The translations under genes and the position numbers were made by a program. From a virus, in UHGV virus genome UHGV-0060032: a DNA stretch of 14,617 nucleotides; one strand, given 5' to 3'. Below the pieces are notes generated by a model. It made no database searches and was not told the origin of the DNA. It was given only the letters and a program-made list of their open reading frames with translations. Numbering within the stretch: position 1 is the stretch's first letter; every line of letters begins with the position of its first letter. Of this stretch, positions 1-14,617 are shown one piece after another.

Positions 1-49
1 TTAATCACATATCGTGAATAATTAATTCATCTAACCACTGGAGGTTGAT

Positions 50-265
50 ATGAACAACATTGCAGAGCAGCGAAAAAAAATTGGGATTTCGCAAGCCGCT
101 CTGGCTTCTGCCATAGGCTGGGGGCAGTCGCGAATTGCCAATTATGAGCTTGATATCCGCACCCCTGGTCTGCCGGAAAGTCGCCTTATTGTCGAGGGCC
201 TGAACCGTCTCGGTTGCAATTGCTCCCTTGATGACGTTTTCCCACCAACTACCAGCGCAGCCTAA
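50..265 (+). CDS. Cro-like HTH (XRE-family) transcriptional regulator
   Basis: 71-aa ORF with GGAGG RBS at 40-44; helix-turn-helix-like segment IGISQAALASAIGWGQSRIANYE; sits immediately upstream of nutR and cII, the position of cro in lambdoid phages. Confidence 0.65.
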   Translation: MNNIAEQRKKIGISQAALASAIGWGQSRIANYELDIRTPGLPESRLIVEGLNRLGCNCSLDDVFPPTTSAA

Positions 266-273
266 GTAACACC

Positions 274-306
274 CGCTCTTATCACATCTAAGCCCTGAAA
301 AAGGGC
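274..306 (+). promoter_or_regulatory. nutR-like N-utilisation site: boxA CGCTCTTA (274-281) and boxB hairpin GCCCTGAAAAAGGGC (292-306)
   Basis: boxA matches the lambda boxA consensus and boxB matches lambda nutR boxB as I recall it; GCCCT/AGGGC is a perfect 5-bp inverted repeat with an A-rich loop, located between cro and cII. Confidence 0.75.
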
Positions 307-388
307 GATTCAAAACAACAAGTCTTAAAGGCTATGCGTGTCTGCACATTGGCCTATTTAACTATTTAACACTCTAGGAATTTAACAA

Positions 389-688
389 ATGGAAAACTCA
401 ATTAACCGCAACAAGGTCAATGCCCGTCGCATTGAGTCCTGGTTGCTTAACCGTATCGCTATGAAAGGTGGCAACAACGTAGCTAAAGAGATCGGCGTTG
501 ATAAGGCACAGATAACCCGCTGGAAAGAAACGTGGCTGCCGAAGATGGCAATGCTGCTTGCTGTTCTTGAATGGGGCGTCGTTGACGACGATATGGCTCG
601 ATTGGCACGACAAGTTGCTTCGATTCTCACCAATAAAAAACGCCCGGCGGCAACCGAGCGTTCTGAACAAATCCAGATGGAATTCTGA
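389..688 (+). CDS. cII: CII-like transcriptional activator
   Basis: 99-aa product; the stretch RIESWLLNRIAMKG...LLAVLEWGVVDDDMARLARQVASILTNKKRPAATERSEQIQMEF is near-identical to lambda CII as I recall it; position after cro/nutR. Confidence 0.85.
   Translation: MENSINRNKVNARRIESWLLNRIAMKGGNNVAKEIGVDKAQITRWKETWLPKMAMLLAVLEWGVVDDDMARLARQVASILTNKKRPAATERSEQIQMEF
398..411 (-). promoter_or_regulatory. PRE-like CII-binding -35 element (TTGC-N6-TTGA on minus strand)
   Basis: Reverse complement of 398-411 is TTGCGGTTAATTGA. In lambda the CII site TTGCN6TTGC of PRE lies antisense inside the first codons of cII, as it does here. Confidence 0.4.
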
Positions 689-720
689 GGTAATTACTGG
701 ATCAATCCACAGGAGTCATT

Positions 721-1590
721 ATGACAAATACAGCAAAAATACTCAACTTCGGCAGAGGTAACTTTGCCGAACAGGAGCTAAGAGTGGCTGATATCGATGA
801 TGGTTACACCAGATTCGCTAACGAGCTGCTGGAAGCTATCGCAAGTGCCGATTTAACCGCTCGCCAGTTGAAAGTTATGCTGGCCTACGTCCGGAAAACA
901 TATGGATTCAATAAGAAAACAGATCGAATAGCCGATGAGCAAATTGCTCAGTTAACAGGACTATCAAGGCAGAATGTTAACAAGGCTAAAAAAGAACTGA
1001 TTTCAATGAATTGCCTGTTTATGGATGGAAATCAAATCGGTGTAAACAGGGAGGTATCTGCGTGGCAATTCAGCAAGTGTCTCCAAGTTAGCAACTTTGT
1101 CTCGAAGTTAGAGACAAAAAATGTCTCCAAATTAGAGACACTCAATGTCTCGAAGTTAGAGACACTCAATGTCTCGAAGTTAGAGACACACAAAAGACAT
1201 TCTTTAAAGACAAAAGAAAATATTAATAAACCCCCTATATCCCCCAAAAAAATTTCTCAGAAGTTCGACCCGCTAGAAACAGAGTTGCCTGATTGGTTAT
1301 CGGCAGAAACATGGTTGTCGTGGGTTACCTATCGCAAGGAGATAGGTAAGTCGATCAAGTCTAAGCAAAGCGTCACTCAGGCTATCAACGTTCTAAGCAG
1401 AAGTCTGGAGAAGGGATATACACCTGAAGAAATTATAAACCAGAGCATCGCCAGTGGTTGGCAGGGGATTTTTGAACCCAAGACTCCAAAGGGGAAATCT
1501 CAACCGAGGCCGCAGCAGCGAGCTATGCAGGAAAACTTTGCCGCCAAAGATTACGGGCAAACTGAAATGCCTTCATGGGCGCAGGAGTGA
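721..1590 (+). CDS. Replication initiator, lambda O-like (iteron-binding N-terminal domain)
   Basis: N-terminus MTNTAKILNFGRGNFAEQE...DDGY...LKVMLAYVRKTYGFNK closely resembles lambda O N-terminal domain; the gene contains the iteron array; RBS AGGAG upstream. Confidence 0.8.
   Translation: MTNTAKILNFGRGNFAEQELRVADIDDGYTRFANELLEAIASADLTARQLKVMLAYVRKTYGFNKKTDRIADEQIAQLTGLSRQNVNKAKKELISMNCLFMDGNQIGVNREVSAWQFSKCLQVSNFVSKLETKNVSKLETLNVSKLETLNVSKLETHKRHSLKTKENINKPPISPKKISQKFDPLETELPDWLSAETWLSWVTYRKEIGKSIKSKQSVTQAINVLSRSLEKGYTPEEIINQSIASGWQGIFEPKTPKGKSQPRPQQRAMQENFAAKDYGQTEMPSWAQE
1078..1260 (+). repeat. Origin of replication: iteron array plus AT-rich tract inside the O-like gene
   Basis: Four copies of the palindromic 19-mer TGTCTC-N7-GAGACA at 1098, 1122, 1146 and 1170 (exact 24-bp spacing), a degenerate copy at 1078, then an A/T-rich stretch 1189-1260. 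This mirrors ori-lambda organisation. Confidence 0.8.
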
Positions 1591-1592
1591 AT

Positions 1593-2486
1593 ATGAATAC
1601 GACAAATGGTTACAATCTGGCACTGCAAAGGCAACTTGTAGACTCAAAAATCAATGACATTTCTGATCTGAAACAGAAACTTGAGTTTAGCAAAATTGGA
1701 TCAGTATCAGATGGAATGTCAGTTACCAGCACAGTGGAAGAGTGCGAGAAACACGGTAAATATACTTCCTATGAGAAATATCTGACCATCTCAGGAAAAA
1801 GAATTACTTCAAGTAAATCTGAGTGCCCACAGTGCCTTGAGGAGAAAATTCGTAAGAAAGAGATTGAACGTGAGCAGGCAGAACAAAGAGCAAGACAATC
1901 AAAAATTGAATATTTGTTGAATTCTCTCAATATTCCAGAGAGGTTCAAAAATTGCACTCTTCAGAATTATGAGCCTGTTAACGATGATGCAAAGCGAGTT
2001 CTTAAGGTATGCCAGGCATATGCCAGTAAGTGGCCTGAACGCCTTCAAAAAGGTGGCGGACTGGTCATGTGTGGTAAGCCTGGAACTGGAAAGAACCACC
2101 TTGCACTGGCTATCGCTAGGCACGCCATTATCGAGCATCAAAGCTCTGTGATATTTACCACTGCGTTGAAAATTGCCAGAGAGTACAAATCAACATGGTC
2201 TAAGGCCGCAACCAGAACTGAAGAAGAAGTCATTAGGCAATTTACGCATCCTGACTTGTTAATAATCGATGAGGTTGGCGTGCAGTTCGGCAGTGATGCT
2301 GAAAAGCTAATCATGTTCGAAATTATCAACACCAGATATGAATACATGAAGCCAACAATCCTGATTAGTAATCAGAGCAAAGATGAACTTTCGGCATTCA
2401 TTGGTGAGCGTGTTATTGACAGGATGAATGATGGCGGAGGGTGCACTCTTGCGTTTACATGGGATAGTTACAGGAGCAGATCGTGA
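1593..2486 (+). CDS. DnaC/IstB-like AAA+ helicase loader with N-terminal Cys-containing extension
   Basis: Walker A GKPGTGKNHLA and Walker B LLIIDEVG; CEKHG...CPQC motif near N-terminus; start at 1593 chosen for AGGAG RBS; occupies the lambda P position after O. Confidence 0.75.
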   Translation: MNTTNGYNLALQRQLVDSKINDISDLKQKLEFSKIGSVSDGMSVTSTVEECEKHGKYTSYEKYLTISGKRITSSKSECPQCLEEKIRKKEIEREQAEQRARQSKIEYLLNSLNIPERFKNCTLQNYEPVNDDAKRVLKVCQAYASKWPERLQKGGGLVMCGKPGTGKNHLALAIARHAIIEHQSSVIFTTALKIAREYKSTWSKAATRTEEEVIRQFTHPDLLIIDEVGVQFGSDAEKLIMFEIINTRYEYMKPTILISNQSKDELSAFIGERVIDRMNDGGGCTLAFTWDSYRSRS

Positions 2487-2773
2487 CTGGAAAAGAAATC
2501 ATCCTGGAATATCTGAAAACTCATGAACAATTCTCCCCACATGAATTAGCACTGATCACCGGAATACCAAATAACAGAATCGCTCAAGCAGCAAGGCATA
2601 TGGTGAAACAAGGACATTTGAGTGTTGTTGAGCGTAAGTGGAAGACGGTTATTTATGCAAAACGCAAAGTGAAGAAGGAGCCAATTAAAAGAAATCCAGA
2701 TGGTACGGGGTGGGGATGTGCAAATCCAATGACGGCGTTTATTAATAGGGCGCTTATGGAGGTAAGGCAATGA
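2483..2773 (+). CDS. Small hypothetical protein, possibly winged-helix DNA-binding
   Basis: 96-aa ORF with a GTG start overlapping the stop of the loader gene (translational coupling); basic C-terminus; no family recognised. Confidence 0.4.
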   Translation: MTGKEIILEYLKTHEQFSPHELALITGIPNNRIAQAARHMVKQGHLSVVERKWKTVIYAKRKVKKEPIKRNPDGTGWGCANPMTAFINRALMEVRQ

Positions 2774-2798
2774 CCATCTACATCACTGAGCTAATAAC

Positions 2799-2830
2799 AG
2801 GCCTGCTGGTAATCGCAGGCCTTTTTATTT
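2799..2830 (+). terminator. Rho-independent terminator-like hairpin
   Basis: AGGCCTGC (2799-2806), 8-nt loop, GCAGGCCT (2815-2822), followed by TTTTATTT. Confidence 0.65.
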
Positions 2831-2859
2831 GGGGGAGAGGGAATTGGAGGCTTTAAGAA

Positions 2860-3075
2860 ATGAGTACGATAGCTGAGCTTGTCAGGGCTAATTTTCGTGA
2901 AGAGTTGGTGCGTTGGTATCGGTATCGTTCATCGTCCAGTTTGCCGATTGATGAGTTGTATGAGCATTCACCTGCTGCACGACGCTATCCGCGTGACCGT
3001 GTTCTTCGACGGTTGTCCAAACTCAACAATGAGTTTCAGCGCAACAGAATTATTCGGAGTCTGGATTTAAAGTAA
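2860..3075 (+). CDS. Hypothetical protein (71 aa)
   Basis: ORF with GGAGG RBS 8-12 nt upstream of ATG; no recognisable family. Confidence 0.4.
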   Translation: MSTIAELVRANFREELVRWYRYRSSSSLPIDELYEHSPAARRYPRDRVLRRLSKLNNEFQRNRIIRSLDLK

Positions 3076-3085
3076 AGGAGTGAGC

Positions 3086-3292
3086 ATGACAAATCAGCAG
3101 CAAATAGAGTTCATCCTTGAGCAGATTCGAAAAATGCGAGAAAAGAACCAGCCAGACATGATGGAAATATGGAGACGCCAGCAGGAAGAATACCGCAAGC
3201 ATATTTTTGGTGAGAGAAAACAGGATGACTGGAGCCTATATGGCTATGGCACCAGGACAAATAAAAACGGATATAGCCTTTACACATATTGA
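3086..3292 (+). CDS. Hypothetical protein (68 aa)
   Basis: ATG at 3086 preceded by AAGGAG; charged, helical-looking product; no recognisable family. Confidence 0.4.
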   Translation: MTNQQQIEFILEQIRKMREKNQPDMMEIWRRQQEEYRKHIFGERKQDDWSLYGYGTRTNKNGYSLYTY

Positions 3293-3300
3293 GGAATTCC

Positions 3301-3711
3301 ATGAAACAGACAATTTTCCTCAGGAGTAAGCAACAACAGCAAACCGCAATCACCGCCATCCTCGCAACACCACTCGATAAAGACAAGCCAGTTACCATCC
3401 GCATTACTGACTACAAGCGCAACCTTGACCAGAACGCAAAATTTCACGCGATGCTGGCGGATATCGCAAGTCAGGTTCAATGGTGCGGCAAATGGTTAAA
3501 ACCAGAACAATGGAAGGTTTTGTTGATAAGCGGTCATGCAGTGGCAACAAAGCAGGAAGCTGATGTTTTGCCCGGCCTTGAAGGCGAATACGTCAACATT
3601 CGCGAAAGCAGCGCGCAGATGAGCGTGAAGCGTATGGCAAGTCTGATCGAGTACACAACAGCATGGGCTATTGGTCAGGGTGTCAGATTTACCGACAGGA
3701 GGTACGAATGA
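3301..3711 (+). CDS. ninB: NinB-like recombination protein
   Basis: The segment [24 protein letters not shown]...[12 protein letters not shown] resembles lambda NinB as I recall it; GAGGAA RBS; first gene of a nin-like cluster. Confidence 0.6.
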
Positions 3712-3884
3712 GACGACAGCGACGAAGTATCACCGACATAATCTGCGAAAACTGCAAATACCTTCCAACGAAACGCTCCAGAAATAAACGCAAGCCAATC
3801 CCAAAAGAATCTGACGTAAAAACCTTCAACTACACGGCTCACCTGTGGGATATCCGGTGGCTAAGGCATCGTGCGAGGAAATGA
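3708..3884 (+). CDS. ninE: NinE-like small protein
   Basis: 58-aa basic product [19 protein letters not shown]...; ATGA overlap with ninB stop; size and position match ninE. Name is from recall and synteny only. Confidence 0.5.
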
Positions 3885-3886
3885 CA

Positions 3887-4297
3887 ATGGATTATTCACA
3901 GTTAAGTGATTTTGAAATTAACAAGCGAGTATGTGAGGCTTTAGATATGGAGGAGCATTTCTTCATACCTGATGACGAAGCAGATTTCGATTCTGAGATC
4001 CCCACTGACGAAAGAGGTCCTATTTGGCAGACGCAAAAAAGGGATATTAATGGCTTCCGTTCTTCAAACGGAAATTGCTTCAATCCTTGCAATAATCCTG
4101 AATATGCGTGGCCAATTATCACTGAAAACAAAATCAGCATAATGTTTGATAGTACCGATACGAGATATGAAGGCGAATATCACGAGTGGTGTGATGCGAT
4201 TTCATCTTGTCAAAAGTTCGGAATTCAGTATCAGTCTAATCCACTCCGCGCCGCCATGATTGTCTTTCTCATGATGCAGGACGCCAATAATGCTTAG
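3887..4297 (+). CDS. Hypothetical protein in NinX-like position (136 aa, acidic, Cys-containing)
   Basis: ORF between ninE-like and ninF-like genes; start at 3887 chosen for GAGGAA spacing (3881 also possible). The NinX call is positional only. Confidence 0.4.
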   Translation: MDYSQLSDFEINKRVCEALDMEEHFFIPDDEADFDSEIPTDERGPIWQTQKRDINGFRSSNGNCFNPCNNPEYAWPIITENKISIMFDSTDTRYEGEYHEWCDAISSCQKFGIQYQSNPLRAAMIVFLMMQDANNA

Positions 4298-4466
4298 CCC
4301 ATCCCAATCCCTTCAATACCAGAAAGAAAGCGTCGAGCGGGCTTTAACGTGCGCTAACTGCGGTCAGAAGCTGCATGTGCTGGAAGTTCACGTGTGCTCC
4401 GATTGCTGCGCAGAGCTGATGAGCGATCCGAATAGCTCAATGTACGAGGAAGAAGACGATGAATGA
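4290..4466 (+). CDS. ninF: NinF-like small Cys-rich protein
   Basis: 58-aa ORF absent from the supplied track (under 60 aa); MLSPSQSLQYQKESVERALTCANCGQKLHVLEVHVCSDCCAELMSDPNSSMYEEEDDE; CxxC...CxxCC pattern; overlaps both neighbours. Confidence 0.5.
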   Translation: MLSPSQSLQYQKESVERALTCANCGQKLHVLEVHVCSDCCAELMSDPNSSMYEEEDDE

Positions 4467-5181
4467 GTTAATAAATGGCAATGCCATCAAAATGACAAGC
4501 ATTGAAATCGCTGAGTTGGTGGGAAGTCGTCATGACAAGGTGAAACAATCTATTGAACGACTGGCGGCTCGAGGTGTGATCCGAAATCCCCCAATGGTGG
4601 TTTTCGAAAAAATCAATAACTTAGGATTACTTCGTGGCGTAGAGGCTTACGTTTTTGAGGGCGAACAAGGTAAGCGAGACAGCATTATTGTCGTCGCTCA
4701 GTTGTCGCCGGAATTCACCGCTCGTCTTGTTGACCGTTGGCGAGAGCTTGAAGAAGCTGCGGTTAATATCCCCAAAACGCTACCAGAAGCGTTGCGCCTT
4801 GCTGCTGATCTTGCTGAGCAGAAAATGCAACTGGAAAACCAGCTCGCAATTGCCGCACCTAAAGTTGAGTTTGCCGATCGCGTTGGCGAGGCCAGCGGAA
4901 TTTTGATTGGAAACTTTGCAAAGGTTGTTGGTATTGGTCCAAACAAACTGTTTGCGTGGATGCGCGATCACAAAATCCTTATTGCTTCAGGTTCCCGGCG
5001 CAATGTGCCAATGCAGGAATATATGGAGCGCGGCTATTTCACAGTGAAAGAAACAGCGGTCAACACAAATCACGGAATACAGATATCGTTCACCACAAAA
5101 ATCACCGGGCGTGGTCAACAGTGGCTGACCAGAAAGCTGCTCGATAACGGAATGCTGAAAGTAACAGGGGAGGCTGCTTAA
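4459..5181 (+). CDS. Phage antirepressor-like protein (Rha/AntA-like N-terminal region, KilA-C/ANT-like C-terminal region)
   Basis: 240 aa; N-terminal SIEIAELVGSRHDKVKQSIERL resembles Rha/Ant N-domains; C-terminal half (APKVEFADRVGE...YFTVKET...) resembles KilA-C domains. Assigned by recall of family motifs. Confidence 0.6.
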   Translation: MNELINGNAIKMTSIEIAELVGSRHDKVKQSIERLAARGVIRNPPMVVFEKINNLGLLRGVEAYVFEGEQGKRDSIIVVAQLSPEFTARLVDRWRELEEAAVNIPKTLPEALRLAADLAEQKMQLENQLAIAAPKVEFADRVGEASGILIGNFAKVVGIGPNKLFAWMRDHKILIASGSRRNVPMQEYMERGYFTVKETAVNTNHGIQISFTTKITGRGQQWLTRKLLDNGMLKVTGEAA

Positions 5182-5471
5182 TGGCCAATCTACGCAAAGA
5201 AGCACGCGGCAGAGAATGTCAGGTACGTATTTACGGCGTATGCAATGGCAATCCTGAAACTACAGTTCTGGCACATTACCGGATGGCTGGAATTTGCGGA
5301 ACGGGAATGAAACCTGACGACCTGATCGGCGCATGGGCTTGTAGCGACTGCCACGCGGAGATCGACCGACGCACCCATAACCTCGACAACAAAGACGCCA
5401 GACTTTACCACCTCGAAGGCGTGATCAGGACGCAGGCGATACTGCTGAAGGAGGGGAAGATTAAACCATGA
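5181..5471 (+). CDS. YbcO-like DUF1364 protein (putative nuclease)
   Basis: 96 aa; MANLRKEARGRECQVRIYGVCNGNPETTVLAHYR...CSDCHAEIDRR resembles E. coli prophage YbcO; sits directly upstream of rusA as in DLP12-type prophages. Confidence 0.6.
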   Translation: MANLRKEARGRECQVRIYGVCNGNPETTVLAHYRMAGICGTGMKPDDLIGAWACSDCHAEIDRRTHNLDNKDARLYHLEGVIRTQAILLKEGKIKP

Positions 5472-5830
5472 ACGAATATCAGTTTGTGCTTCCATACCCG
5501 CCGTCGCTGAATACCTACTGGAGAAGACGGGGAAGCCAATACTACATCAGCGATAAAGGCCAGAAATACCGAAAAGACGTTCAGCAAATCATTCGCCAAC
5601 TCAAGTTAGACATTTTCACCAAATCACGACTCCGTATCAAAGTCATCGCAGACGTTCCAGATTCCCGCCGCCGCGACCTCGACAACATCCTGAAAGGTTT
5701 ACTCGACTCCCTTATCCACGCCGGATTTGCGGAAGACGACGAGCAATTCGATGACATTCGCGTAATTCGTGGTGTGAAAGTACCAGGCGGACGGCTTGGA
5801 ATAAAAATCACCGAACTGGAGAACGCATGA
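5468..5830 (+). CDS. rusA: Holliday junction resolvase RusA
   Basis: 120 aa; LPYPPSLNTYWRRRG...RRRDLDNILKGLLDSL...GGRLGIKITEL matches the RusA family including the acidic catalytic RRDLDN motif. Confidence 0.8.
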   Translation: MNEYQFVLPYPPSLNTYWRRRGSQYYISDKGQKYRKDVQQIIRQLKLDIFTKSRLRIKVIADVPDSRRRDLDNILKGLLDSLIHAGFAEDDEQFDDIRVIRGVKVPGGRLGIKITELENA

Positions 5831-6015
5831 ACGCCACAATTCAAACGATACCAGAGCTTCTTATCCAGACACGAGGCAATCAGACCGAAGTGGCGAGGAT
5901 GCTTTCCTGCGCAAGAGGAACAGTGCTCAAGTACAACCGAGACAGCAAAGGCGAGCGTCACGTAATAGTTAACGGCGTCCTGATGGTCAAACAAGGCAAG
6001 AGGGGAAGACGATGA
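5827..6015 (+). CDS. ninH: NinH-like small DNA-binding protein
   Basis: 62 aa; TIPELLIQTRGNQTEVARMLSCARGTVLKY resembles lambda NinH (Fis-like HTH) as I recall it; directly upstream of Q. Confidence 0.5.
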   Translation: MNATIQTIPELLIQTRGNQTEVARMLSCARGTVLKYNRDSKGERHVIVNGVLMVKQGKRGRR

Positions 6016-6530
6016 GCATAAGAGAACTAAACCTCACCAAAGAGCAGCACGAGTGGCTGAATGGCTGGCTTGAACTGTGGGGCGCATGGGTTTATTCAGG
6101 TCGTCTGGAAAAGCGCATGAGCAGCGTAATAGCGAAGTTCATGGAGAGCGTAGAGCCGGGAAGAATTATGACAAGGCCAATGTGTAATGATGATGATGGA
6201 ATGTTGATTTCTCAGGTCGTTGATTCCGTCATGTACATTGACAAGAAAGCCTTTGGCATCCTCCTCAGCTACTACGCTCATGGTTCATCTAAGCGAGCAA
6301 TTGCATCCTACTATCACGCGACTGCAAAGCCACGCAAGATGTGTGGACGCGGTGGCGAGGGATGGAGAAAACCTTCACTGGCAACCTGTAGAAACGAAAT
6401 TGACGATATCCTGAAAGCGTCATTATTTGTTTTGTACCAACCAATGCAAAATGCTTTCAAAATGCGTAAACGTGTTGAGAAAGTTAAGCATGTTGCTGTT
6501 AAAAACCTTGACATGCAATTAGCCATTTAG
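6012..6530 (+). CDS. Late-gene antiterminator Q (P22 gp23 / DLP12 QuuD-like family)
   Basis: 172 aa; WLELWGAWVYSG...RPMCNDDDGMLI resembles the Q-antiterminator family; a late-promoter-like element overlaps its 3' end. Confidence 0.65.
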   Translation: MSIRELNLTKEQHEWLNGWLELWGAWVYSGRLEKRMSSVIAKFMESVEPGRIMTRPMCNDDDGMLISQVVDSVMYIDKKAFGILLSYYAHGSSKRAIASYYHATAKPRKMCGRGGEGWRKPSLATCRNEIDDILKASLFVLYQPMQNAFKMRKRVEKVKHVAVKNLDMQLAI

Positions 6531-6537
6531 CCATAAT
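6508..6537 (+). promoter_or_regulatory. pR'-like late promoter
   Basis: -35 TTGACA (6508-6513), 18-bp spacer, -10 CATAAT (6532-6537), overlapping the end of the Q gene. Confidence 0.6.
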
Positions 6538-6593
6538 TAGAGGGTAAGCTGCCGTTAGTGACTCTTAAGTTGCAACGGTGGCTTTTTTTATTT

Positions 6594-6668
6594 GGGTCAG
6601 TCGTATAAAGGTCATTACGGAAGGCTGTTAACCTTCTTATCGTGGTTCGAGTCCACGCTGTCCCGCCA
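6594..6668 (+). tRNA. tRNA-Asn (anticodon GUU), phage-encoded
   Basis: Hand-folded cloverleaf, 75 nt: acceptor GGGTCAG/CTGTCCC (one U-U mismatch), U8, anticodon stem GAAGG/CCTTC with loop CUGUUAA, T-arm CGTGG-TTCGAGT-CCACG, discriminator G and encoded CCA. Confidence 0.6.
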
Positions 6669-6673
6669 AACAT

Positions 6674-6749
6674 GCTGGTTTAGCTCCAATGGTAGAGCGG
6701 TCGCCTTGTAAGTGAATAGGTAGCGGTTCAAATCCGTTAACCGGCACCA
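6674..6749 (+). tRNA. tRNA-Thr (anticodon UGU), phage-encoded
   Basis: Hand-folded cloverleaf, 76 nt: acceptor GCTGGTT/AACCGGC, D-arm GCTC-CAATGGTA-GAGC, anticodon loop CUUGUAA (stem has one G-A mismatch), T-arm AGCGG-TTCAAAT-CCGTT, discriminator A and CCA. Confidence 0.55.
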
Positions 6750-6805
6750 AAAACCCAGCCAGGGTATCTTCAGCCGCAGAGCTGACATTGCCACACCCTA
6801 ACATT

Positions 6806-6830
6806 CCCGCCTTGAGCGGGTTTTTTATTT
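6806..6830 (+). terminator. Rho-independent terminator (tR'-like), after the tRNAs and before the lysis genes
   Basis: CCCGC (6806-6810), loop CTTGA, GCGGG (6816-6820), then TTTTTTATTT. Confidence 0.75.
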
Positions 6831-6938
6831 CAGGCTCACGGGAATCAATCACTACGTGCTTTGTTGAAAATCCAGCCAGTGAAGCCTGATCCTTTTCATA
6901 CACACACAGCGCCATCCGAAAAATCGGAGGTGAGGCCT

Positions 6939-7262
6939 ATGAAAATGCCATACAAACAAGATTTCATCGCTGCGCTACTTGCCGCCAAGGAGCAGGGTAT
7001 TGGTGCAATGCTGGCTTTTATCATGGCGTATCTGCGTGGTCGCTATAACGGCGGCGCGGTAACAAAAACGCTAATTGATGCGCTGATGTGCGCGATGATT
7101 GCCTGGTTCGTTCGTGACCTTCTGGACTTTATCGGCCTGAGCAGCAACCTCGCCTACATAGCCAGCGTCTTTATTGGATACATCGGCACCGATTCGATCG
7201 GCAATCTTATTAAAAAACTTGCAGCAAAAAAGGCGGGAGTTGACGATGCAAACCAGTCCTGA
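6939..7262 (+). CDS. Class I holin, lambda S-like, with dual-start motif
   Basis: 107 aa from ATG 6939; begins [27 protein letters not shown]..., near-identical in pattern to lambda S including the Met-Lys-Met dual start (second ATG at 6945). Confidence 0.85.
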
Positions 7263-7695
7263 CGGAATTGCTCTGATAAAAAAATTTGAAGGTTGTCGGC
7301 TGACTGCTTACCCCGACCCCGGAACGGGAGATGCGCCGTGGACCATCGGCTATGGCTGGACCCATCCGGTTGACGGAAAGCCAGTAAAGCGCGGTATGAC
7401 TATCGACCAGCAAACCGCTGACAGGCTTCTGAAAACAGGGCTTGTTGGTTATGAGAATGACGTGCTGAAAGTTGTCAGGGTGAAGCTGACACAAGGCCAG
7501 TTCGACGCACTGGTGTCGTTCGCTTACAACGTTGGGTCGCGTGCTCTTTCCACATCTACACTGCTGAAAAAGCTGAATGCTGGCGATATAAAAGGCGCGG
7601 CAGATGAATTTCTGCGCTGGAATAAATCAGGCGGAAAGGTGATGCCGGGGCTCACGAATCGCCGCAAGGCAGAGCGAGCTCTGTTCCTGTCATGA
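7246..7695 (+). CDS. Endolysin, lysozyme (glycoside hydrolase family 24, P22 gp19-like)
   Basis: 149 aa from ATG 7246; [33 protein letters not shown] and C-terminal [11 protein letters not shown] typical of T4/P22-type lysozymes; overlaps holin end. Confidence 0.85.
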
Positions 7696-8159
7696 TTAGC
7701 GCACTGGTTAAGCGTTACTGGCTGCAGTTGCTGGTGCTGGCGTTAATCGGCGCACTGGCTTTCTTCGTGAACCACTACCGCGACAACGCCATCACTTACA
7801 GAGACCAGCGCGATAAGGCCACTGAGAAACTCCTCCTGGCGACCGCCACCATTAAAGACATGCAGACCCGCCAGCGTGATGTCGCTGCACTGGATGCCAA
7901 ATACACCGGAGAACTGGCTGATGCGAAAGAAACCATTGAGCGTCTGCATAGCGATGTCATTGCTGGCCGTAAGCGGCTGCAAGTCGCCGCCACCTGTGCA
8001 AAGTCAACGACCGGAGCCAGCGGCATGGGCGATGGAGAAAGCCCAAGACTTACAGCAGATGCTGAACTCAATTATTACCGTCTCCGAAGTGGAATCGACA
8101 AGATAACCGCGCAGGTTAACTACCTGCAGGAGTACATCAGGACGCAATGCCTGAAATAA
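7692..8159 (+). CDS. Rz-like i-spanin
   Basis: 155 aa; N-terminal transmembrane segment [17 protein letters not shown] then charged coiled-coil-like region; ATGA overlap with lysozyme stop; contains Rz1 in the +1 frame. Confidence 0.8.
7921..8106 (+). CDS. Rz1-like o-spanin (outer-membrane lipoprotein) embedded within Rz
   Basis: 61 aa from ATG 7921: [20 protein letters not shown] (signal peptide plus lipobox Cys) followed by proline-rich [13 protein letters not shown]; fully nested in Rz. Confidence 0.75.
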
Positions 8160-8192
8160 TTTTTTTTGCAAATCACAAAGTCCATTTAATGA

Positions 8193-8216
8193 GCCTCGCG
8201 ATGCGGGGCTTTTTTA
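8193..8216 (+). terminator. Rho-independent terminator-like hairpin after the lysis cassette
   Basis: GCCTCGC (8193-8199), loop GAT, GCGGGGC (8203-8209, one G-U pair), followed by TTTTTT. Confidence 0.6.
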
Positions 8217-8359
8217 CATCTGAATTTCACAGCGCATCTCACGCGCATATTACCACTCAGAACCTTTCAGGATGACCCTTGAGGATACCGGCTGGCTGTC
8301 GGAGCATCTGAGGGCCGGATTTCCTGTGAGACAAGGTTCATCACTAAAAGGTAAATCCG

Positions 8360-8911
8360 ATGAATGATATTTCTATCGAATATCTGAAAGAAGCACTGGA
8401 ATACGCACCAGATACTGGTGTTATCCGTTGGAAGCAGCGACCAAAAATTCATTTTAAGACCGAAAATTCTTGGCGGGCGACCAATGCTAATTTTGCTGGA
8501 AAAGTAGCAGGCGCACGTGATAGCGATGGATATTTGCGTATCGGGATATGCGGCCGGTTATATAGATCTCATCGTGTAGCCTGGGCGTTACATTACGGCT
8601 ACTGGCCTGATAATGAGATTGATCACATTTCAGGCGATAGGAGTGATAACCGCATAGACAACTTGCGATCAGTAACTTCGGCAGCCAATAGCAAAAATTT
8701 GCGCCTTTACTCCACAAATAAAACCGGTATCCCAGGAGTAGGTTGGTATAAAGCGCGGGGAAAGTGGAGAGCAAAGATAAACGTCTCTGGGAAGGTGAAG
8801 CATATTGGTTACTTCGATGATTTCCGTGAAGCGGTGAAAGCAAGAAAGGCTGCCGAGATGCAGTTGCAATATCACAAAAATCACGGAACCAGAGACAGGC
8901 TCACTTTCTAA
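8360..8911 (+). CDS. HNH endonuclease with C-terminal AP2-like DNA-binding region
   Basis: 183 aa; HNH core HRVAWALHYGYWPDNEIDHISGDRSDNRIDNLR; C-terminal GIPGVGWYKARGKWRAKINVSGKVKHIGYFDDFREA resembles AP2 domains of phage endonucleases. Confidence 0.75.
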   Translation: MNDISIEYLKEALEYAPDTGVIRWKQRPKIHFKTENSWRATNANFAGKVAGARDSDGYLRIGICGRLYRSHRVAWALHYGYWPDNEIDHISGDRSDNRIDNLRSVTSAANSKNLRLYSTNKTGIPGVGWYKARGKWRAKINVSGKVKHIGYFDDFREAVKARKAAEMQLQYHKNHGTRDRLTF

Positions 8912-8925
8912 AAGGTAAAGACGCT

Positions 8926-9450
8926 ATGAATAATCATTCAGTTATTCCATCCTTCGACTTCCGAGAAATGGTGCAAGCCAAAAACGGAGAGGTCGTTACC
9001 ACATCCAGAAAAATTGCCAAGTACTTCGGCAAGCGACACGGTGATGTTCTCAGGAAAATCGAGCAGGTTAAGGCTGATTGCTCGCGTGAGTTTAGCCAAC
9101 GCAATTTTGCGTCGGCTGATTATATCGATGAGCAGGGCAAGGTTCGCCCGATGTACAGCCTGACGAAAGATGGCTGGATCATGGTTGTGATGGGGTTCAC
9201 CGGGAAAGCTGCTGCGGCAATCAAGGAGAGCTATATCGCAGCATTCAACTGGATGGCAGAGCAGCTAAACCGGCGCATGGCGATGGGTGAAGAATTGCAG
9301 CATCGCTACGCCATCAAAGAAACGCGCTCAAAGCTGAAAGGCACGTTCGGAAGCCGTTTGATGAACGAGCGGAAGAAAGAGAAGCGCGTCCTGGAGCTCG
9401 AACATGAGCACATCATGCAGGTAACGCAGCCGGAATTACTTATTGGCTGA
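8926..9450 (+). CDS. Phage regulatory protein Rha family
   Basis: 174 aa; VVTTSRKIAKYFGKRHGDVLRKIEQV...MYSLTKDGWIMVVMGF matches the Rha-domain pattern as I recall it. Confidence 0.65.
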   Translation: MNNHSVIPSFDFREMVQAKNGEVVTTSRKIAKYFGKRHGDVLRKIEQVKADCSREFSQRNFASADYIDEQGKVRPMYSLTKDGWIMVVMGFTGKAAAAIKESYIAAFNWMAEQLNRRMAMGEELQHRYAIKETRSKLKGTFGSRLMNERKKEKRVLELEHEHIMQVTQPELLIG

Positions 9451-9510
9451 TCGCGGCATTACAGAAGCCCTTCATTGAGGGGCTTCGATAATGGAGCACT
9501 GGAATTATTC

Positions 9511-10131
9511 ATGAACAGACCACACCCACCAGCGCATTTTACGATGCCACCTGACCCGAAGCCGTACATCAGCATTATGCCCGCTAATGACGTTGGCGAG
9601 TGGCTGAATCAGCACATCCTGAGCGATGAGGGTGACCTCTACAACCATGACCACCAGCATTTGCTTGAAGCGGATCTGTGCTTTCTCTGGGCATCGAACG
9701 CTTTCGAGAAGAAAGGGCGTTCCGTGCTGGGGCAGGCGGAAGAAGTGGCAATGCGGGCCGGAGGCTGGCAGAAAGCGCGGATGGAGCAGCAGATGTATGA
9801 ATGGTTCGGCAGGGTGCCGCAGTTCATCATCACGCTGGCCGCCGATTACTGCTCGCAATGTTCCGATCTGGAATTCTGCGCGCTGATAGAGCACGAGCTT
9901 TATCACATCTGCCAAGCGACAGATGAATTTGGTGCGCCGAAGTTCACGCAGGAAGGGCAGCCAAAGCTGAAGCTGCGCGGCCATGACGTGGAAGAGTTTG
10001 TGGGCGTGGTTCGCCGTTACGGTGCGAGCCGGGACGTGCAGGAAATGATTGATGCGGCGAATCAGCCAGCGGAGGTTGCTCATCTCGATATTGCCAGAGC
10101 GTGCGGGACGTGCATGCTGCGACTGGCTTAA
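9511..10131 (+). CDS. Hypothetical HExxH-motif protein (putative zinc metallopeptidase-like)
   Basis: 206 aa from ATG 9511 (TTG 9475 or ATG 9544 also possible); HExxH motif in ALIEHELYHI preceded by CSQCSDLEFC; GC-rich codon usage like the packaging genes. Confidence 0.5.
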   Translation: MNRPHPPAHFTMPPDPKPYISIMPANDVGEWLNQHILSDEGDLYNHDHQHLLEADLCFLWASNAFEKKGRSVLGQAEEVAMRAGGWQKARMEQQMYEWFGRVPQFIITLAADYCSQCSDLEFCALIEHELYHICQATDEFGAPKFTQEGQPKLKLRGHDVEEFVGVVRRYGASRDVQEMIDAANQPAEVAHLDIARACGTCMLRLA

Positions 10132-10162
10132 ATACTGGACTGTATAAGACGAATGGTGATTT

Positions 10163-10636
10163 ATGGCTGCATTAAAACCTGATGTGAAAGCCTTCATCAT
10201 TCAGTCGCTTGCGTGCTATGACACGCCATCGCAGGTGGTCGAGGCTGTCCAAAAAGAATTCGGGATCAGGATCACCCGCCAGCAGGCTGAATCTCACGAC
10301 CCCACGAAGGCCAGCGGTAAGACGCTCGCCAAAAAGTGGATCGAGATGTTCCACGCGACGCGCGAACGGTTCCTGACCGAAACCAGCGACATTCCGATAG
10401 CGAACAAATCCTATCGCCTCCGCGTGCTTGACCGCATGGCAACCAAAACCGAGGGGATGAAAAACTTCTCCCTGACGGCGCAGCTTATCGAACAGGCCGC
10501 GAAAGAGGTTGGCGACGCTTACACCAATAAGCTGAAGGTTGAGAGCACTGGCAAGGATGGCGGCCCGATCAAGACCGAGACGACCAACCTCACCGCAGAT
10601 CAGGCCGCAGAGATTTACCGCAAGATGATGGGGTGA
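10163..10636 (+). CDS. Terminase small subunit (DUF2280-like)
   Basis: 157 aa; [35 protein letters not shown] resembles the DUF2280 putative small-terminase family as I recall it; directly upstream of and overlapping TerL. Confidence 0.6.
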
Positions 10637-10638
10637 TC

Positions 10639-12261
10639 ATGCCTCTCCCGTTTGAATTCGATTTCAGAAACCCTGATTACCAGATGGTTTTTGAATGGCG
10701 GATGGAGCGCTTACAGCGCATTCGCCAGAACCCTGAAATGCTGCCAGCGCTAAAGCAGTTTTATCGCACCAACCCGGCACAGTTCATCATCGACTGGGGT
10801 ATGACTACTGACCCGCGTAACATCGATTATGGCCTGCCGGTCACCATCCCTTTTCTGCTGTTCCCGAAACAGGAAGAGTGGATTCACTGGATCATGGAGC
10901 GGCGCGAACGACTGGAGAACGGCATCACCGAAAAGAGCCGCGAAATGGGGCTCAGTTGGACCGCGATCGGGCTGGCCTGCTCGCTTTGTCTCTTCAACAA
11001 AGAAATGGTTATCGGTTTCGGCTCCCGTAAAGAGGAATACGTCGACAGCACCGGTGACCCGAAGGCGCTGTTCTGGAAGGCGCGAAAGTTCGTGGAAACA
11101 CTGCCCATCGAGTTTCGTGGTTCGTGGGACGAGAAGAAGCATGCGCCGTATATGCGCGTTGAGTTTCCCGATACTGGCGCGGTCATCAAAGGCGAGGCTG
11201 GCGACAATATCGGTCGTGGTGACCGTACCACGCTCTACCTGGTGGATGAAGCTGCATTCCTCCAGCGTCCTCTGTTGATTGATGCGGCGCTGTCGCAAAC
11301 CACCCGTTGCCGTATTGACCTGAGCTCGGTTAATGGCATGGCGAACCCGTTCGCGCAGAAGCGTCACGGCGGGAAGATACCGGTATTCACATTCCACTGG
11401 CGGGATGATCCTCGCAAGGATGAAGAGTGGTATCGCAGGGAGTGCGAGAAAATCGACAATCCGGTGGTGGTGGCGCAGGAACTTGACCTGAACTACAGCG
11501 CATCTGCGGAAGGCGTCCTGATCCCGTCCGACTGGGTACAGGCTGCCGTCGACGCGCATATCAAACTTGGTATTCAGCCAACGGGCAAGCGACTGGGCGC
11601 GATGGACGTCGCCGACGAAGGCCGGGACAAAAATGCCTTTTCGACCCGTCACGGCTTCCTTCTGGAGAACGTGCGTGAATGGTCCGGCGTGGGCAGCGAC
11701 ATTTACCAGTCCGTTGAGAAGGTCTTCGGCTTTTGCGAACAGGACAACCTCGAAGAATTTCGCTTCGACGAGGACGGCCTGGGCGCTGGCGTTCGCGGCG
11801 ATGCACGCGCCATCAACGAACTGCGTAACGCTGCGCGCCGACCGTCAATACTCGCCACACCGTTTCGTGGTAGCGGCGCGGTATTTGATCCGGACGATGA
11901 AGCGGTGCGCGGGGACAACGGACAGGCCGCACGCCTGAACAAGGACTTCTTCGCCAACGCCAAGGCCCAGAGCTGGTGGCATTTACGCAAGCTTTTCCAG
12001 AACACCTATCGCGCCGTGGTTGAGGGCATGGCCTACAACCCGGACGAAATCATCTCAATCAGCAGCGCCATGGCGAGCAAAGACAAACTCATCATCGAGC
12101 TGTCGCAGCCGACCTACTCCATTAATGGCGTGGGGAAAATCGTTGTTGATAAACAGCCTGATGGCACCAAGTCGCCGAACCTCGCCGACTCGGTGATGAT
12201 CAGCTACGCGCCAATGAATTCAGCCCTGAACATCTGGGAGCTGCTAGGGAGACAGGCCTGA
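10639..12261 (+). CDS. Terminase large subunit
   Basis: 540 aa from ATG 10639 (in-frame GTG at 10633); Walker-B-like [11 protein letters not shown]; size and position between TerS and portal; acidic C-terminal half consistent with a nuclease domain. Confidence 0.75.
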
Positions 12262-13730
12262 TGGCACGAAACAAGCAATCCTCTCAGCGAACGGCACAGC
12301 CCACCGCTGACGGCTACGAGAACTTCGTCGCCCGTGTTGGGATGCAGACGCCTAACCAGCATTCAGCATCGACCTACCGGGCGAACTCCACCAGCCGCAA
12401 CCGCATGCTGGTGGAATGGTCATATCGCGGTTCGTGGGTTATCGGTGAAGCGGTCGACGCTATCCCGGACGATATGACCCGAAAGGGCATTCGCATCACT
12501 TCGGAGATTGACGCCAAAGACCGTGGCACCCTCGAAGCGCAACTGGATGAGTTGCAGATCTGGGATGCGCTGAACGACGTGCTGAAATGGTCGCGCCTCT
12601 ACGGCGGCGCGGTCGGCTTCATCATGATCGAGGGGCAAGCACCAATGACCCCGCTGCGACTCGAAACCATTGGCGAGGGCAAGTTTAAGGGCATTCTCCC
12701 GCTCGACCGCTGGATGATTAACCCGGTGCTGACACGCCGCATTAAAGAGATGGGGCCGGACCTCGGCAAGCCTGAGTTTTACGACGTGGTGACCACCGCA
12801 ACGGGCATTCCGGCCTGGCGCATCCATCACAGCCGCCTGATCCGCTTTGATGGCGTCACGCTGCCATTCCAGCAGAAGATGACCGAAAACGAATGGGGAA
12901 TGTCGGTTGTAGAGCGTATCTGGGATCGGCTTACTGCGTTCGATAGCGCTACTGTCGGCGCGGCGCAGCTGGTCTATAAAGCGCATCTGCGTACCTATAG
13001 CGTGGAGAAGTTGCGCGAGCTTATCGCGCTTGGAGGCCCGGCGTTCGAAGCGTTGCTGAAGAACATCGACCTGATCCGCCAGTTCCAGAGCAATGAAGGT
13101 ATGACGCTCATGGACTCGCGGGATAAGTTCGAAACCCACCAGTACAGCTTTAGTGGTCTGGATGACATTCTTTCGCAGTTTGCTGAGCAGATCAGCGGTG
13201 CCGTTGGTATCCCGCTGGTACGCCTGTTCGGTCAATCCCCGAAAGGCTTCTCTACTGGTGATGCAGACCTCGCCAACTATTACGACCGGGTGAGCTCATT
13301 GCAGGAGCGCCGCTTACGGCTGCCGATGCGCCGGATACTGGACATTATGCACCGCTCGGAACTCGGAAAGCCGCTGCCGGACGATTTCACGTTTGAGTTT
13401 AACCCGCTATGGCAAATGTCAGACGTTGACCGATCAACGGTGGCCGTAAACACCACCAACGCGATCAGTACCGCGCTGGGCGACGGATTGATGACGCGTA
13501 AGGCGGCGATGACCGACCTGCGCGAAAACTCTGACGTCACCGGCATCGGGGCATCCATTACCGACGAGGATATCGAGAATGCCGAAGACGAAGCGCCGCC
13601 AGGCATCGGCGAACTTGGCGACAAACCGCCAGAGTCGCCAGGCGGAGATCCGATATCGAACGAGCCTACGGCAGATAGCGCGGGCGGTCGGGGATATCGT
13701 AAATGGGCGCTACGATGGTTCAAACGATAG
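12261..13730 (+). CDS. Portal protein
   Basis: 489 aa; ATGA overlap with TerL stop; position after TerL and before a Mu-F-like gene (SPP1-type order); acidic low-complexity C-terminus. Confidence 0.7.
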   Translation: MARNKQSSQRTAQPTADGYENFVARVGMQTPNQHSASTYRANSTSRNRMLVEWSYRGSWVIGEAVDAIPDDMTRKGIRITSEIDAKDRGTLEAQLDELQIWDALNDVLKWSRLYGGAVGFIMIEGQAPMTPLRLETIGEGKFKGILPLDRWMINPVLTRRIKEMGPDLGKPEFYDVVTTATGIPAWRIHHSRLIRFDGVTLPFQQKMTENEWGMSVVERIWDRLTAFDSATVGAAQLVYKAHLRTYSVEKLRELIALGGPAFEALLKNIDLIRQFQSNEGMTLMDSRDKFETHQYSFSGLDDILSQFAEQISGAVGIPLVRLFGQSPKGFSTGDADLANYYDRVSSLQERRLRLPMRRILDIMHRSELGKPLPDDFTFEFNPLWQMSDVDRSTVAVNTTNAISTALGDGLMTRKAAMTDLRENSDVTGIGASITDEDIENAEDEAPPGIGELGDKPPESPGGDPISNEPTADSAGGRGYRKWALRWFKR

Positions 13731-14352
13731 CGTCACCGAAATAATGGATGCGCTGGAGCGCTACAGCGAAATCATCACCCCCTGGGCGACGAAGGTTGCT
13801 GAGAACTTCACCGCAGACATAGCGCGCCAGAATGAAAAGCAGTGGCGTCAGCACAGCCGGAACATCAGCGCAGAGCTGCGCAACATGGTTGACCGCGCCC
13901 CGGTAGGCCAGGTGATGAAATCCATCGTTGCCGAGCAAATTAAGTACATTAAATCGCTGCCTCTTGAGGCCGCCGATCGGGTGTATGACATTCAGAACAA
14001 AGCCATCGAGGCTGTTGTGACTGGTGGCCGCGCTGAGCCATTCGCGAAAGAGATAGCTGCTTCCGGTGACGTGTCACGCTCACGAGCGAACCTTATCGCC
14101 CGGACTGAGCTTGGGCGCGCAACCGGTGCACTGGATCAGGCGCGTGCGCTGTCAATCGGCTCGAATGGTTATATCTGGCGTACAGCCGAAGATGGCGACG
14201 TCCGGCATTCTCATCGAGAGATGGAAGGGAAGTTTGTCGAATGGGGCCGACCTCCAACGCTTGACGGCATGACCGGTCACGCCGGGGAGTTACCTAACTG
14301 CCGTTGCTACAAAGAAATCGTATTCCCGACACCTCATCCCTATCTCGCCTGA
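13579..14352 (+). CDS. Head morphogenesis protein (Mu F / SPP1 gp7 family)
   Basis: Conserved C-terminal region ANLIARTELGRATGALDQARALSIGSNGYIWRTAEDGDVRHSHREMEGK... typical of Mu-F-like proteins. Start is uncertain: ATG 13579 has a GAGGA RBS but overlaps portal by 152 nt; ATG 13744 is the alternative. Confidence 0.7.
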   Translation: MPKTKRRQASANLATNRQSRQAEIRYRTSLRQIARAVGDIVNGRYDGSNDSVTEIMDALERYSEIITPWATKVAENFTADIARQNEKQWRQHSRNISAELRNMVDRAPVGQVMKSIVAEQIKYIKSLPLEAADRVYDIQNKAIEAVVTGGRAEPFAKEIAASGDVSRSRANLIARTELGRATGALDQARALSIGSNGYIWRTAEDGDVRHSHREMEGKFVEWGRPPTLDGMTGHAGELPNCRCYKEIVFPTPHPYLA

Positions 14353-14366
14353 ATTGCAGGTAACCC

Positions 14367-14567
14367 ATGGAAAAAACAATCTATTTCCTGAAAGAACAGG
14401 CCAGCGAAGCTACGCGCATCACTGCTAAATACAATGGCGTAGAGGCTATTTATCAATCTGTTGGTGATAGAGCAAAGCGCTGCCAACTTATAGGTCGTGG
14501 TAATGCGCGTCAGATAAAGCATCTGCTGCGTGAGTTTATTAAATCCACTAAGGCGGCGGATGGATGA
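14367..14567 (+). CDS. Hypothetical small protein (66 aa)
   Basis: ORF just after the Mu-F-like gene, same strand; no recognisable family. Confidence 0.35.
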   Translation: MEKTIYFLKEQASEATRITAKYNGVEAIYQSVGDRAKRCQLIGRGNARQIKHLLREFIKSTKAADG

Positions 14568-14617
14568 AATATTTCTTCTACACCCGGCTGGGGGAAACCC
14601 GCTATCAGCTGGCTGAC
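14564..14617 (+). CDS. Hypothetical protein, 5' fragment truncated by window end
   Basis: ATG at 14564 overlaps the preceding stop (ATGA); reads MKYFFYTRLGETRYQLAD to the window edge. Confidence 0.3.
   Translation, partial: MKYFFYTRLGETRYQLAD

Follow-up and report, generated by a model that had tools for sequence, protein, structure and literature searches.

A probable ori-lambda-like replication origin within the O-like initiator gene of an mEpX1-like temperate phage

A 14,617-nt stretch of UHGV virus genome UHGV-0060032 (analysed in full and referred to here as the window) carries a tandem array of short palindromes inside the coding sequence of a replication initiator. This raises the question of whether the array is maintained as DNA, as the origin on which the initiator acts, or as a repetitive segment of the protein that it encodes. 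Its anatomy, homology, conservation pattern, co-variation with the initiator and copy-number polymorphism are described below, and on sequence grounds the locus is very probably the origin used for vegetative replication by a lambdoid (mEpX1-like) temperate phage or prophage, ori-lambda-like and located inside the initiator gene. The original prediction of an origin within an O-like gene is right in outline, the layout of the ori-lambda type being matched by the sequence: a position within O, an iteron array, an A+T-rich tract and a helicase loader gene directly 3′ are found together. The features concerned are as follows.

50-265, plus strand: cro-like HTH gene heading the operon (Pfam HTH_3, 2.5e-09)
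389-688, plus strand: cII-like activator gene, 5′ in the same rightward operon (Pfam Phage_CII, 1.9e-37)
721-1590, plus strand: O-like replication initiator gene, 289 aa, which holds the putative origin (ORF, Pfam PF04492, PHROG 678)
721-1071, plus strand: N-terminal domain of O, aa 1-117, presumed to bind the iterons (58% identity to lambda O)
1078-1096, no strand assigned: site 0, half-degenerate iteron TGTCTCCAAGTTAGCAACT, 20 bp 5′ of site 1 (repeat search)
1098-1116, no strand assigned: iteron 1, TGTCTCGAAGTTAGAGACA (repeat search, Tandem Repeats Finder, exact motif)
1122-1140, no strand assigned: iteron 2, TGTCTCCAAATTAGAGACA (repeat search, Tandem Repeats Finder, exact motif)
1146-1164, no strand assigned: iteron 3, TGTCTCGAAGTTAGAGACA (repeat search, Tandem Repeats Finder, exact motif)
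1170-1188, no strand assigned: iteron 4, the last, TGTCTCGAAGTTAGAGACA, adjoining the A-rich tract
1189-1260, no strand assigned: A+T-rich tract, presumed DNA-unwinding element (composition, homology to the lambda tract)
1261-1590, plus strand: C-terminal domain of O, presumed to contact the loader (unlike the lambda O C-domain)
1593-2486, plus strand: DnaC/IstB-like AAA+ helicase loader gene (Pfam, PHROG 50, start context)
2483-2773: ren-like gene, next after the loader

The initiator matches Phage_rep_O (Pfam PF04492; 4.5e-36, aa 21-115) and PHROG 678 ‘replication initiation O-like’ (2e-82). It is 58% identical to lambda O over aa 1-115, a similarity that stops at W115, just before the iterons, and its putative recognition helix, SRQNVNKAKKEL, lies at approximately aa 82-93. 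Past aa 115 protein comparison revealed no similarity to lambda O, and aa 156-288 match PHROG 18589. A search of PDB sequences identified no solved structure of the O family, only weak matches to CRP/FNR-type HTH proteins (E ~0.04). AlphaFold2 run on the single O sequence gave a mean pLDDT of 46, with the N-domain and repeat region all <50, values too low to bear out either a winged-helix N-domain or a disordered linker; the homologues listed were all ~97% identical and therefore provided no useful alignment for the model. The longest ORF for the loader spans 1575-2486, but translation probably starts at the ATG at 1593, which is preceded by GGAG and gives a 297-aa product, as called in relatives. 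This product matches IstB_IS21 (Pfam, 1.3e-18), the Bac_DnaA ATPase and PHROG 50 ‘DnaC-like helicase loader’ (9e-86). In mEpX1, a promoter is annotated 5′ of the gene equivalent to the cro-like gene. Since the late half of the window (6897-14617) resembles Citrobacter phage Omnitron, while O and the loader are mEpX1-like, the element is a mosaic lambdoid phage or prophage. A minus-strand ORF across the array (1032-1247), with no PHROG family match, was rejected as an artefact of the palindromes.

Exact TGTCTC-N7-GAGACA sites are present at 1098-1116, 1122-1140, 1146-1164 and 1170-1188, at a pitch of exactly 24 bp, as had been predicted. When the whole window was searched for this motif with ≤2 mismatches, five matches were found, compared with a mean of 0.46 in 200 dinucleotide-preserving shuffles, none of which reached five. 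The fifth match in that search, at 10987, is unrelated to the array. Tandem Repeats Finder identified a single array (1098-1193; period 24, 4.0 copies, indels = 0), and a repeat search added the degenerate copy at 1078 (site 0), with a good left arm and a right arm matching at 3/6 positions, giving a spacing of 20/24/24/24 bp for the five sites. The earlier count of four thus stands for the perfect sites and leaves out a degenerate fifth. The interval given with that count began at 1078 and covers this copy, although four sites were named. Site 0 differs in codon phase from the perfect sites (it reads CLQVSN), corresponds in position to lambda iteron 1 (spacing in lambda 20/24/23) and is kept in relatives from Erwinia, Dryocola and Tatumella; as a half-match only, it may not be bound by O. 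At 10.5 bp per turn the five sites lie at 0, 326, 69, 171 and 274 degrees. The proposal that the iterons share nearly the same helical face does not hold, since successive sites 24 bp apart are rotated by ~103°, and the resulting spiral arrangement fits a wrapped nucleoprotein complex.

Both the array and the A-rich tract are inside the Phage_rep_O ORF (721-1590, plus strand), at the junction between the regions encoding the N- and C-domains, in agreement with the predicted placement of iterons and AT-rich tract within the O-like gene. The core of the tract (1189-1232), directly beside the iterons, has a G+C content of 22.7% and a top strand that is 57% A (25 A in 44 bases), and 1189-1260 has 29% G+C compared with 50% for the whole window. 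The tract opens with a conserved motif, ACACAAAAGACA (1188-1199), and has its homologue in the lambda tract, GACACAAAAGACACTATTACAAAAGAAAAAAGAAAAG. Strain VL40 carries an IS element precisely where the last iteron meets the A-rich tract.

To place this arrangement in its family, 77 relatives (one genome per species) were collected with the N-domain protein as the only query, blind to iteron sequence. Just 3′ of the N-domain, most loci show their best self-similarity at a period of 24 and most of the others at 23. The layout is common to all loci, with CACAAAAGA coming after approximately four dyad sites. The motif ACAAAAGA occurs in 66 of the 77 and reads TKD in 47 intact ORFs (lambda included) and HKR in 15 (window included), so that one DNA element is conserved across two reading frames. 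Explicit site mapping was carried out for 41 protein-found relatives that were assigned to an arm class. Sites are spaced 20/24/24 in the GTCTC and GTAGC classes and 19-20/24/23 in the lambda, TTACC, TTAGC and GTCAC classes; the gap from the last site to ACAAAAGA is 2 nt in 37/41 and 1 nt in 4/41 (GTTAC class). The window’s arm class differs from lambda by 1 bp, in the last interval, and because its spacing is almost the same as that of lambda, array spacing is a family trait and not special to the window.

Across these 41 relatives and lambda, the arm class co-varies with the putative recognition helix of the initiator, as listed here by arm class and helix segment.

GTCTC: SRQNVNKAKKEL, invariant in 14/14 loci, even at 52-63% overall identity
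GTCAC: PRQKVNKAKNEL
TTACC: LPHKCSAAKSAL
GTTAC: AKAHVSVAVR
GTAGC: HRTHVCNARNQL
lambda: PVKRCNEAKLEL

The helix segment of the GTCTC class differs from that of every other arm class. This co-variation supports, but does not prove, binding of the iterons by the N-domain. At the other end of the protein, the type of C-domain mostly tracks the type of loader, with window-type C-domains accompanying DnaC-like loaders and lambda-type C-domains accompanying lambda P-like loaders. However, the rule is not strict, as four relatives (L076, L087, L097 and L099) break the pairing by combining a window-type C-domain with a lambda-P-like loader.

The co-variation of arm and helix also bears on a different role for the palindromes, as hairpins in the O mRNA or the antisense strand that would regulate translation, stability or termination. 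Folded as RNA, 1070-1200 has an energy of -38 kcal/mol (z = -5.0 versus shuffles), and one iteron is terminator-like on the minus strand (1143 to 1119). However, low energy follows trivially from tandem palindromes, and the ensemble is diffuse, with an MFE frequency of 0.004 and a nearly unpaired centroid; a z of -5 being expected of such palindromes, the fold was rejected as evidence for an RNA element. A hairpin would account for pairing ability, but here the arm sequence itself is fixed within a specificity class, and arm classes change together with the recognition helix of the initiator, making such a role scarcely conceivable. Rfam gave no family match at the array, the only matches in the window being two tRNAs elsewhere.

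The array is translated as SKCLQVSNF-VSKLETKN-VSKLETLN-VSKLETLN-VSKLETHK. The peptide repeat announced in the original prediction is therefore real, although its units end in KN, LN, LN and HK and are not all VSKLETLN. V-S and E-T are present in each unit because the arms GTCTC and GAGACA dictate them. The codon phases of the sites in the window (0, 2, 2, 2, 2) give rise to the VSKLETxN repeat, while those of the lambda iterons (0, 2, 2, 1) leave lambda O with no clean repeat. The repeat is thus a by-product of the 24-bp (8-codon) pitch and is unlikely to have been selected for itself.

If instead the protein feature were primary, a VSKLETxN linker or coiled segment would be the object of selection, the palindromes would be incidental and the true origin would lie elsewhere. 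The repeat is in frame within an intact ORF and the surviving expansions are all in frame, as would be expected on that reading. A first conservation table was built from loci chosen by iteron pattern and was set aside as evidence on the arms, whose invariance is partly forced by that choice; only its spacer columns are informative, and in these the codons of the N7 spacer and of the intervals between sites vary freely in amino acid (K/N/S/E, L/S/P/A and K/R/L/N/V/S/I). Because of the way that set was chosen, the arm test was redone on relatives found through the N-domain protein, comparing the window with 12 relatives from Erwinia, Dryocola, Tatumella, Pantoea, Providencia, Xenorhabdus, Proteus and Halomonas, with N-domains 54-90% identical to that of the window. 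In the arm codons Val (GTC), Glu (GAG) and Thr (ACA) the third base is unchanged in 92/99 cases (93%), compared with 480/895 (54%) for codons of conserved residues in the N-domain (Fisher p 4e-16, a nominal value as the lineages are not independent).

Retention of the arm third bases, free variation in the spacers, the occurrence of ACAAAAGA in two frames and the co-variation of arm and helix together indicate that selection acts mainly on the DNA, with the peptide apparently a tolerant passenger. Of the predicted constraint on both DNA and protein, the first part is borne out by the arm third bases and the second is overstated. Primary selection on the peptide is further opposed by natural alleles that tolerate 3 to 9 units, by the homologous lambda sites, which fall in three codon phases and yield no peptide repeat, and by the dyad symmetry of the unit, which has no meaning for a peptide. 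With the adjacent motif also conserved in two frames across the family, we regard this alternative as very improbable and retain the interpretation of the array as an origin.

The number of sites in the array is polymorphic. The window contains an exact 24-bp in-frame tandem duplication of CTCAATGTCTCGAAGTTAGAGACA (1141-1188), one copy of which corresponds to iteron 3 and the preceding spacer (1141-1164), although which copy is called ‘extra’ is arbitrary. mEpX1, CurroJimenez and N7 have the degenerate site and three perfect sites, exactly one 24-bp unit fewer than the window, and the fourth perfect site of the window appears to be a recent exact duplication. Four perfect sites, taken as the standard array in the original prediction, are thus a departure from the three usual in relatives. 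The window’s origin type was identified in 47 of 5,426 complete E. coli genomes; the match spans 297 nt (296 in one) in 44 of these, compared with 321 nt in the window, corresponding to the three-site form. None of the 47 carries the four-site array of the window and two carry five perfect sites, one of them a pseudogene. Three perfect sites are present in 56 of 66 IMG/VR loci gathered by iteron pattern and in 3 of the 7 reference loci tallied alongside; three of the IMG/VR loci (L006, L015 and L048) have four, with a loader gene unlike that of the window.

At the protein level, the exact O of the window (P0001) was found on five public contigs, some of them assembled from human-gut metagenomes of two separate samples. 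Near-identical O alleles of 297, 313 and 328 aa correspond to five, seven and nine units, and the DNA confirmed all nine sites in the 328-aa allele. Most frequent by a wide margin is the three-unit O of 281 aa, which occurs on at least several hundred contigs. Copy-number events that break the frame destroy O: strain C 236-04A has a 68-bp duplication (20+24+24) and its gene is annotated as a frameshifted pseudogene, and a 25-bp interval in a Morganella prophage leads to stop codons in O.

The 8-codon pitch could make the array an in-frame VNTR-like locus with alleles of 3, 4, 5, 7 and 9 sites, in which copy number tunes origin strength, O-some size, dependence on transcriptional activation or prophage cross-exclusion, the four-site allele of the window being functional and not slippage noise. 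We consider this doubtful; if true, such tuning would resemble the role of the two extra iterons of Stx phages. In those phages efficient binding is confined to the four iterons closest to the A-rich tract, yet plasmid establishment also depends on the two extra ones (PMC7466680). This, together with the range of 3 to 9 copies seen here and the reported inhibition of phage growth by ectopic copies of ori-lambda (PMC4488673, PMC3349717), could also be taken to mean that the sites, or the surplus ones (site 0 and the duplicated unit), serve mainly for regulation or titration of O in autoregulation, copy control or exclusion of related phages. However, an origin role for the core sites is still compatible with such a function, arrays of more than three perfect sites are rare (0/47 E. 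coli genomes with the window’s array and 2/47 with five), and the window’s allele was found on only five contigs, compared with several hundred carrying the 281-aa form, a pattern more suggestive of slippage noise than of a selected state. A mainly regulatory role is improbable, and titration by surplus sites is best viewed as a minor, non-exclusive possibility compatible with the data.

As an origin, the locus would be expected to operate as follows. O-like dimers would bind the TGTCTC-N7-GAGACA sites through the N-terminal helix-turn-helix domain, dimer binding being presumed because the sites are dyad-symmetric. The multi-site complex (‘O-some’) would distort the DNA and melt the adjoining A-rich tract (1189-1232), and the C-terminal domain of O would recruit the DnaC-like loader encoded next door, which would deliver the host DnaB helicase. 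We infer that firing of the origin is probably assisted by rightward transcription from the cro/cII operon, as it is in lambda. The peptide repeat would be the mere translation of the sites lying between the two O domains.

This design is textbook and has been known since 1979; the present iteron class appears to be unannotated and uncharacterised. A literature search for mEpX1 returned no title or abstract on its replication origin, iteron searches returned no paper on this class, O and the loader are not discussed in a preprint on lambdoid mosaicism, and no matching phage record annotates an origin. The analysis defines an iteron consensus, (T/A)GTCTC-N7-GAGAC(A/T), for the mEpX1-type replication module, which is carried by ~1% of complete E. 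coli genomes with its origin unannotated in public records, and which is also found in prophages of Erwinia, Pantoea, Tatumella, Providencia, Proteus, Xenorhabdus, Morganella and Halomonas. The array provides a clear natural demonstration, in a dual-coding segment, of selection on DNA sites with the peptide as passenger, and the pairing of arm classes with recognition helices offers a testable specificity code for initiators of the O family.

One of the closest known systems is ori-lambda, which lies inside gene O and consists of four 19-bp dyad-symmetric iterons and a 40-bp A+T-rich region (Grosschedl & Hobom 1979, Moore et al. 1979 and Tsurimoto & Matsubara 1981, as reviewed in PMC5043065). 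Lambda O dimers bind 19-bp nearly perfect inverted repeats within O, and binding on supercoiled lambda DNA opens the adjacent 40-bp A+T-rich region (PMC5043065). In the lambda record the iterons are at 39034, 39054, 39078 and 39101, inside gene O (spacing 20/24/23). The alignment with ori-lambda and O homologues proposed in the original prediction gave a match in position, site geometry and the ACACAAAAGACA motif. In both phages the origin lies between the N- and C-domains of a Phage_rep_O initiator (N-domains 58% identical), the dyad-symmetric sites are ~19 bp and similarly spaced (20/24/23 in lambda, 20/24/24 in the window), ACACAAAAGACA begins the A-rich tract directly after the last site (where the sequence reads GACACAAAAGACACTATTACAAAAGAAAAAAG in lambda and GACACACAAAAGACATTCTTTAAAGACAAAAGAAAAT in the window), and the operon order is cro, cII, O, loader and ren-like gene. 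The arms differ, being TGTCTC...GAGACA in the window and ATCCCTC...GAGGGA in lambda, and in the window the first site is only a half-match and there is one extra site. The last interval of 24 bp instead of 23 accounts for the single codon phase of the full sites, the clean peptide repeat and the reading of the motif as HKR instead of TKD. The C-domain of the window’s O is not related to its lambda counterpart and the loader is of the DnaC/IstB type, so that this is not a lambda O-P module in the strict sense, the loader being no homologue of P and the C-domain not of the P-binding type; because the loader is not lambda P, the lambda O-P-DnaB pathway is not simply transferable.

Stx phages 933W and P27 carry six lambda-type iterons and an O that is 13 aa longer (PMC7466680), and iteron number in lambda and Stx phages ranges from 4 to 6 (PMC5043065, PMC7466680), with three sufficient in lambda (PMC7466680). 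As in the window, an in-frame duplication within O has added iterons, number varies within one specificity class and the extra peptide is judged not to touch DNA. However, 933W and P27 have kept lambda-type iterons, O and P, while both the iteron class and the loader differ in the window, and copy number ranges more widely in the window’s class (3-9 perfect sites).

The Rep-type iteron origins of plasmids pPS10, RK2, P1 and F likewise have initiator repeats beside an A+T-rich unwinding element and load the host helicase. In plasmids the iterons are direct repeats that bind monomers of the initiator and are located outside the rep gene (PMC5043065), whereas the sites in the window are dyad-symmetric and inside the initiator coding sequence; as inverted repeats within the initiator gene, they set the locus apart from the plasmid Rep/iteron type.

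Closely related replication modules are those of mEpX1 (NC_019709), CurroJimenez_Bas106 and N7, with 98%, 98% and 90.5% nt identity to the window across O and the loader. In their records the O gene is annotated, with no origin or iterons. All three share the iteron sequences, the A-rich tract and the DnaC-like loader with the window, but have three perfect sites and O proteins of 281 (mEpX1), 281 (N7) and 280 aa (CurroJimenez_Bas106), as annotated, compared with four perfect sites and 289 aa in the window.

The window is a mosaic genome, judged by its similarities to sequenced phages (1-6900 vs 6897-14617). The early and replication regions are 95-98% identical to E. coli phages mEpX1 and CurroJimenez. 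Citrobacter phage Omnitron matches the lysis-to-portal region at 96.6% identity, and Salmonella phage SEN34 matches the terminase/portal genes at 88%. Two adjoining phage-borne tRNA genes lie near 6897, where similarity to Omnitron starts:
6594-6668, plus strand, tRNA-Asn(GTT)
6674-6749, plus strand, tRNA-Thr(TGT)

Variant iteron arrays were identified in two of the related loci. At 525-565 of L053 (IMGVR_UViG_3300016476_000979), arms identical to those of the window flank a G+C-rich spacer (TGTCTCCCGGGGGGAGACA) at 22-bp pitch, the sites being in frame within the ORF of a distant rep-like gene. L017 (IMGVR_UViG_3300045988_078236) carries a three-site allele in which the sites and both spacers are all identical (GAAGTTA / CTCAA); the middle CAAATTA unit has been replaced, suggesting gene conversion or unequal exchange inside the array.

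Three loci are natural knock-outs at the origin. In E. coli C 236-04A (L071, 1579-1733) O is frameshifted by a 68-bp duplication across the 20-bp interval, in Morganella psychrotolerans (L081) a 25-bp interval, equivalent to one extra A, introduces stop codons, and in E. coli VL40 (L073, ~1668) an IS2-family element is inserted exactly where the last iteron meets the A-rich tract. O C-terminal domain and loader type otherwise pair regularly, with exceptions in four prophages (L076, L087, L097 and L099), where a window-type C-terminal domain (39-56% identity) accompanies a loader that is lambda-P-like, not DnaC-like.

Several relatives have a GIY-YIG/T5orf172 nuclease gene inserted in the gap between cII and O:
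L002, 325-969
L071 and L072, 594-1238 in each
L153, 870-1514
The inserted gene overlaps the start of O, altering the O N-terminus (e.g. MSLAEVFYLPKSEPVEQE... in P0004). The window and mEpX1 carry no GIY-YIG/T5orf172 gene between cII and O.

At the cII/O junction of the window, an oop-like antisense unit was recognised from its promoter and terminator sequences:
746..628, minus strand, oop-like antisense unit with sigma-70-like promoter and intrinsic terminator
746..718, minus strand, at the start of O, sigma-70-like promoter (TTGAGT-17-CATAAT, extended TG)
664..637, minus strand, within the 3′ end of cII, stem of a strong intrinsic terminator, with T-run
The promoter is oriented leftward, facing the terminator, and the pair would be expected to generate an antisense RNA of ~80 nt. 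A search of Rfam gave no match at this unit (746..628). In both position and size the predicted RNA matches the oop RNA of lambda.
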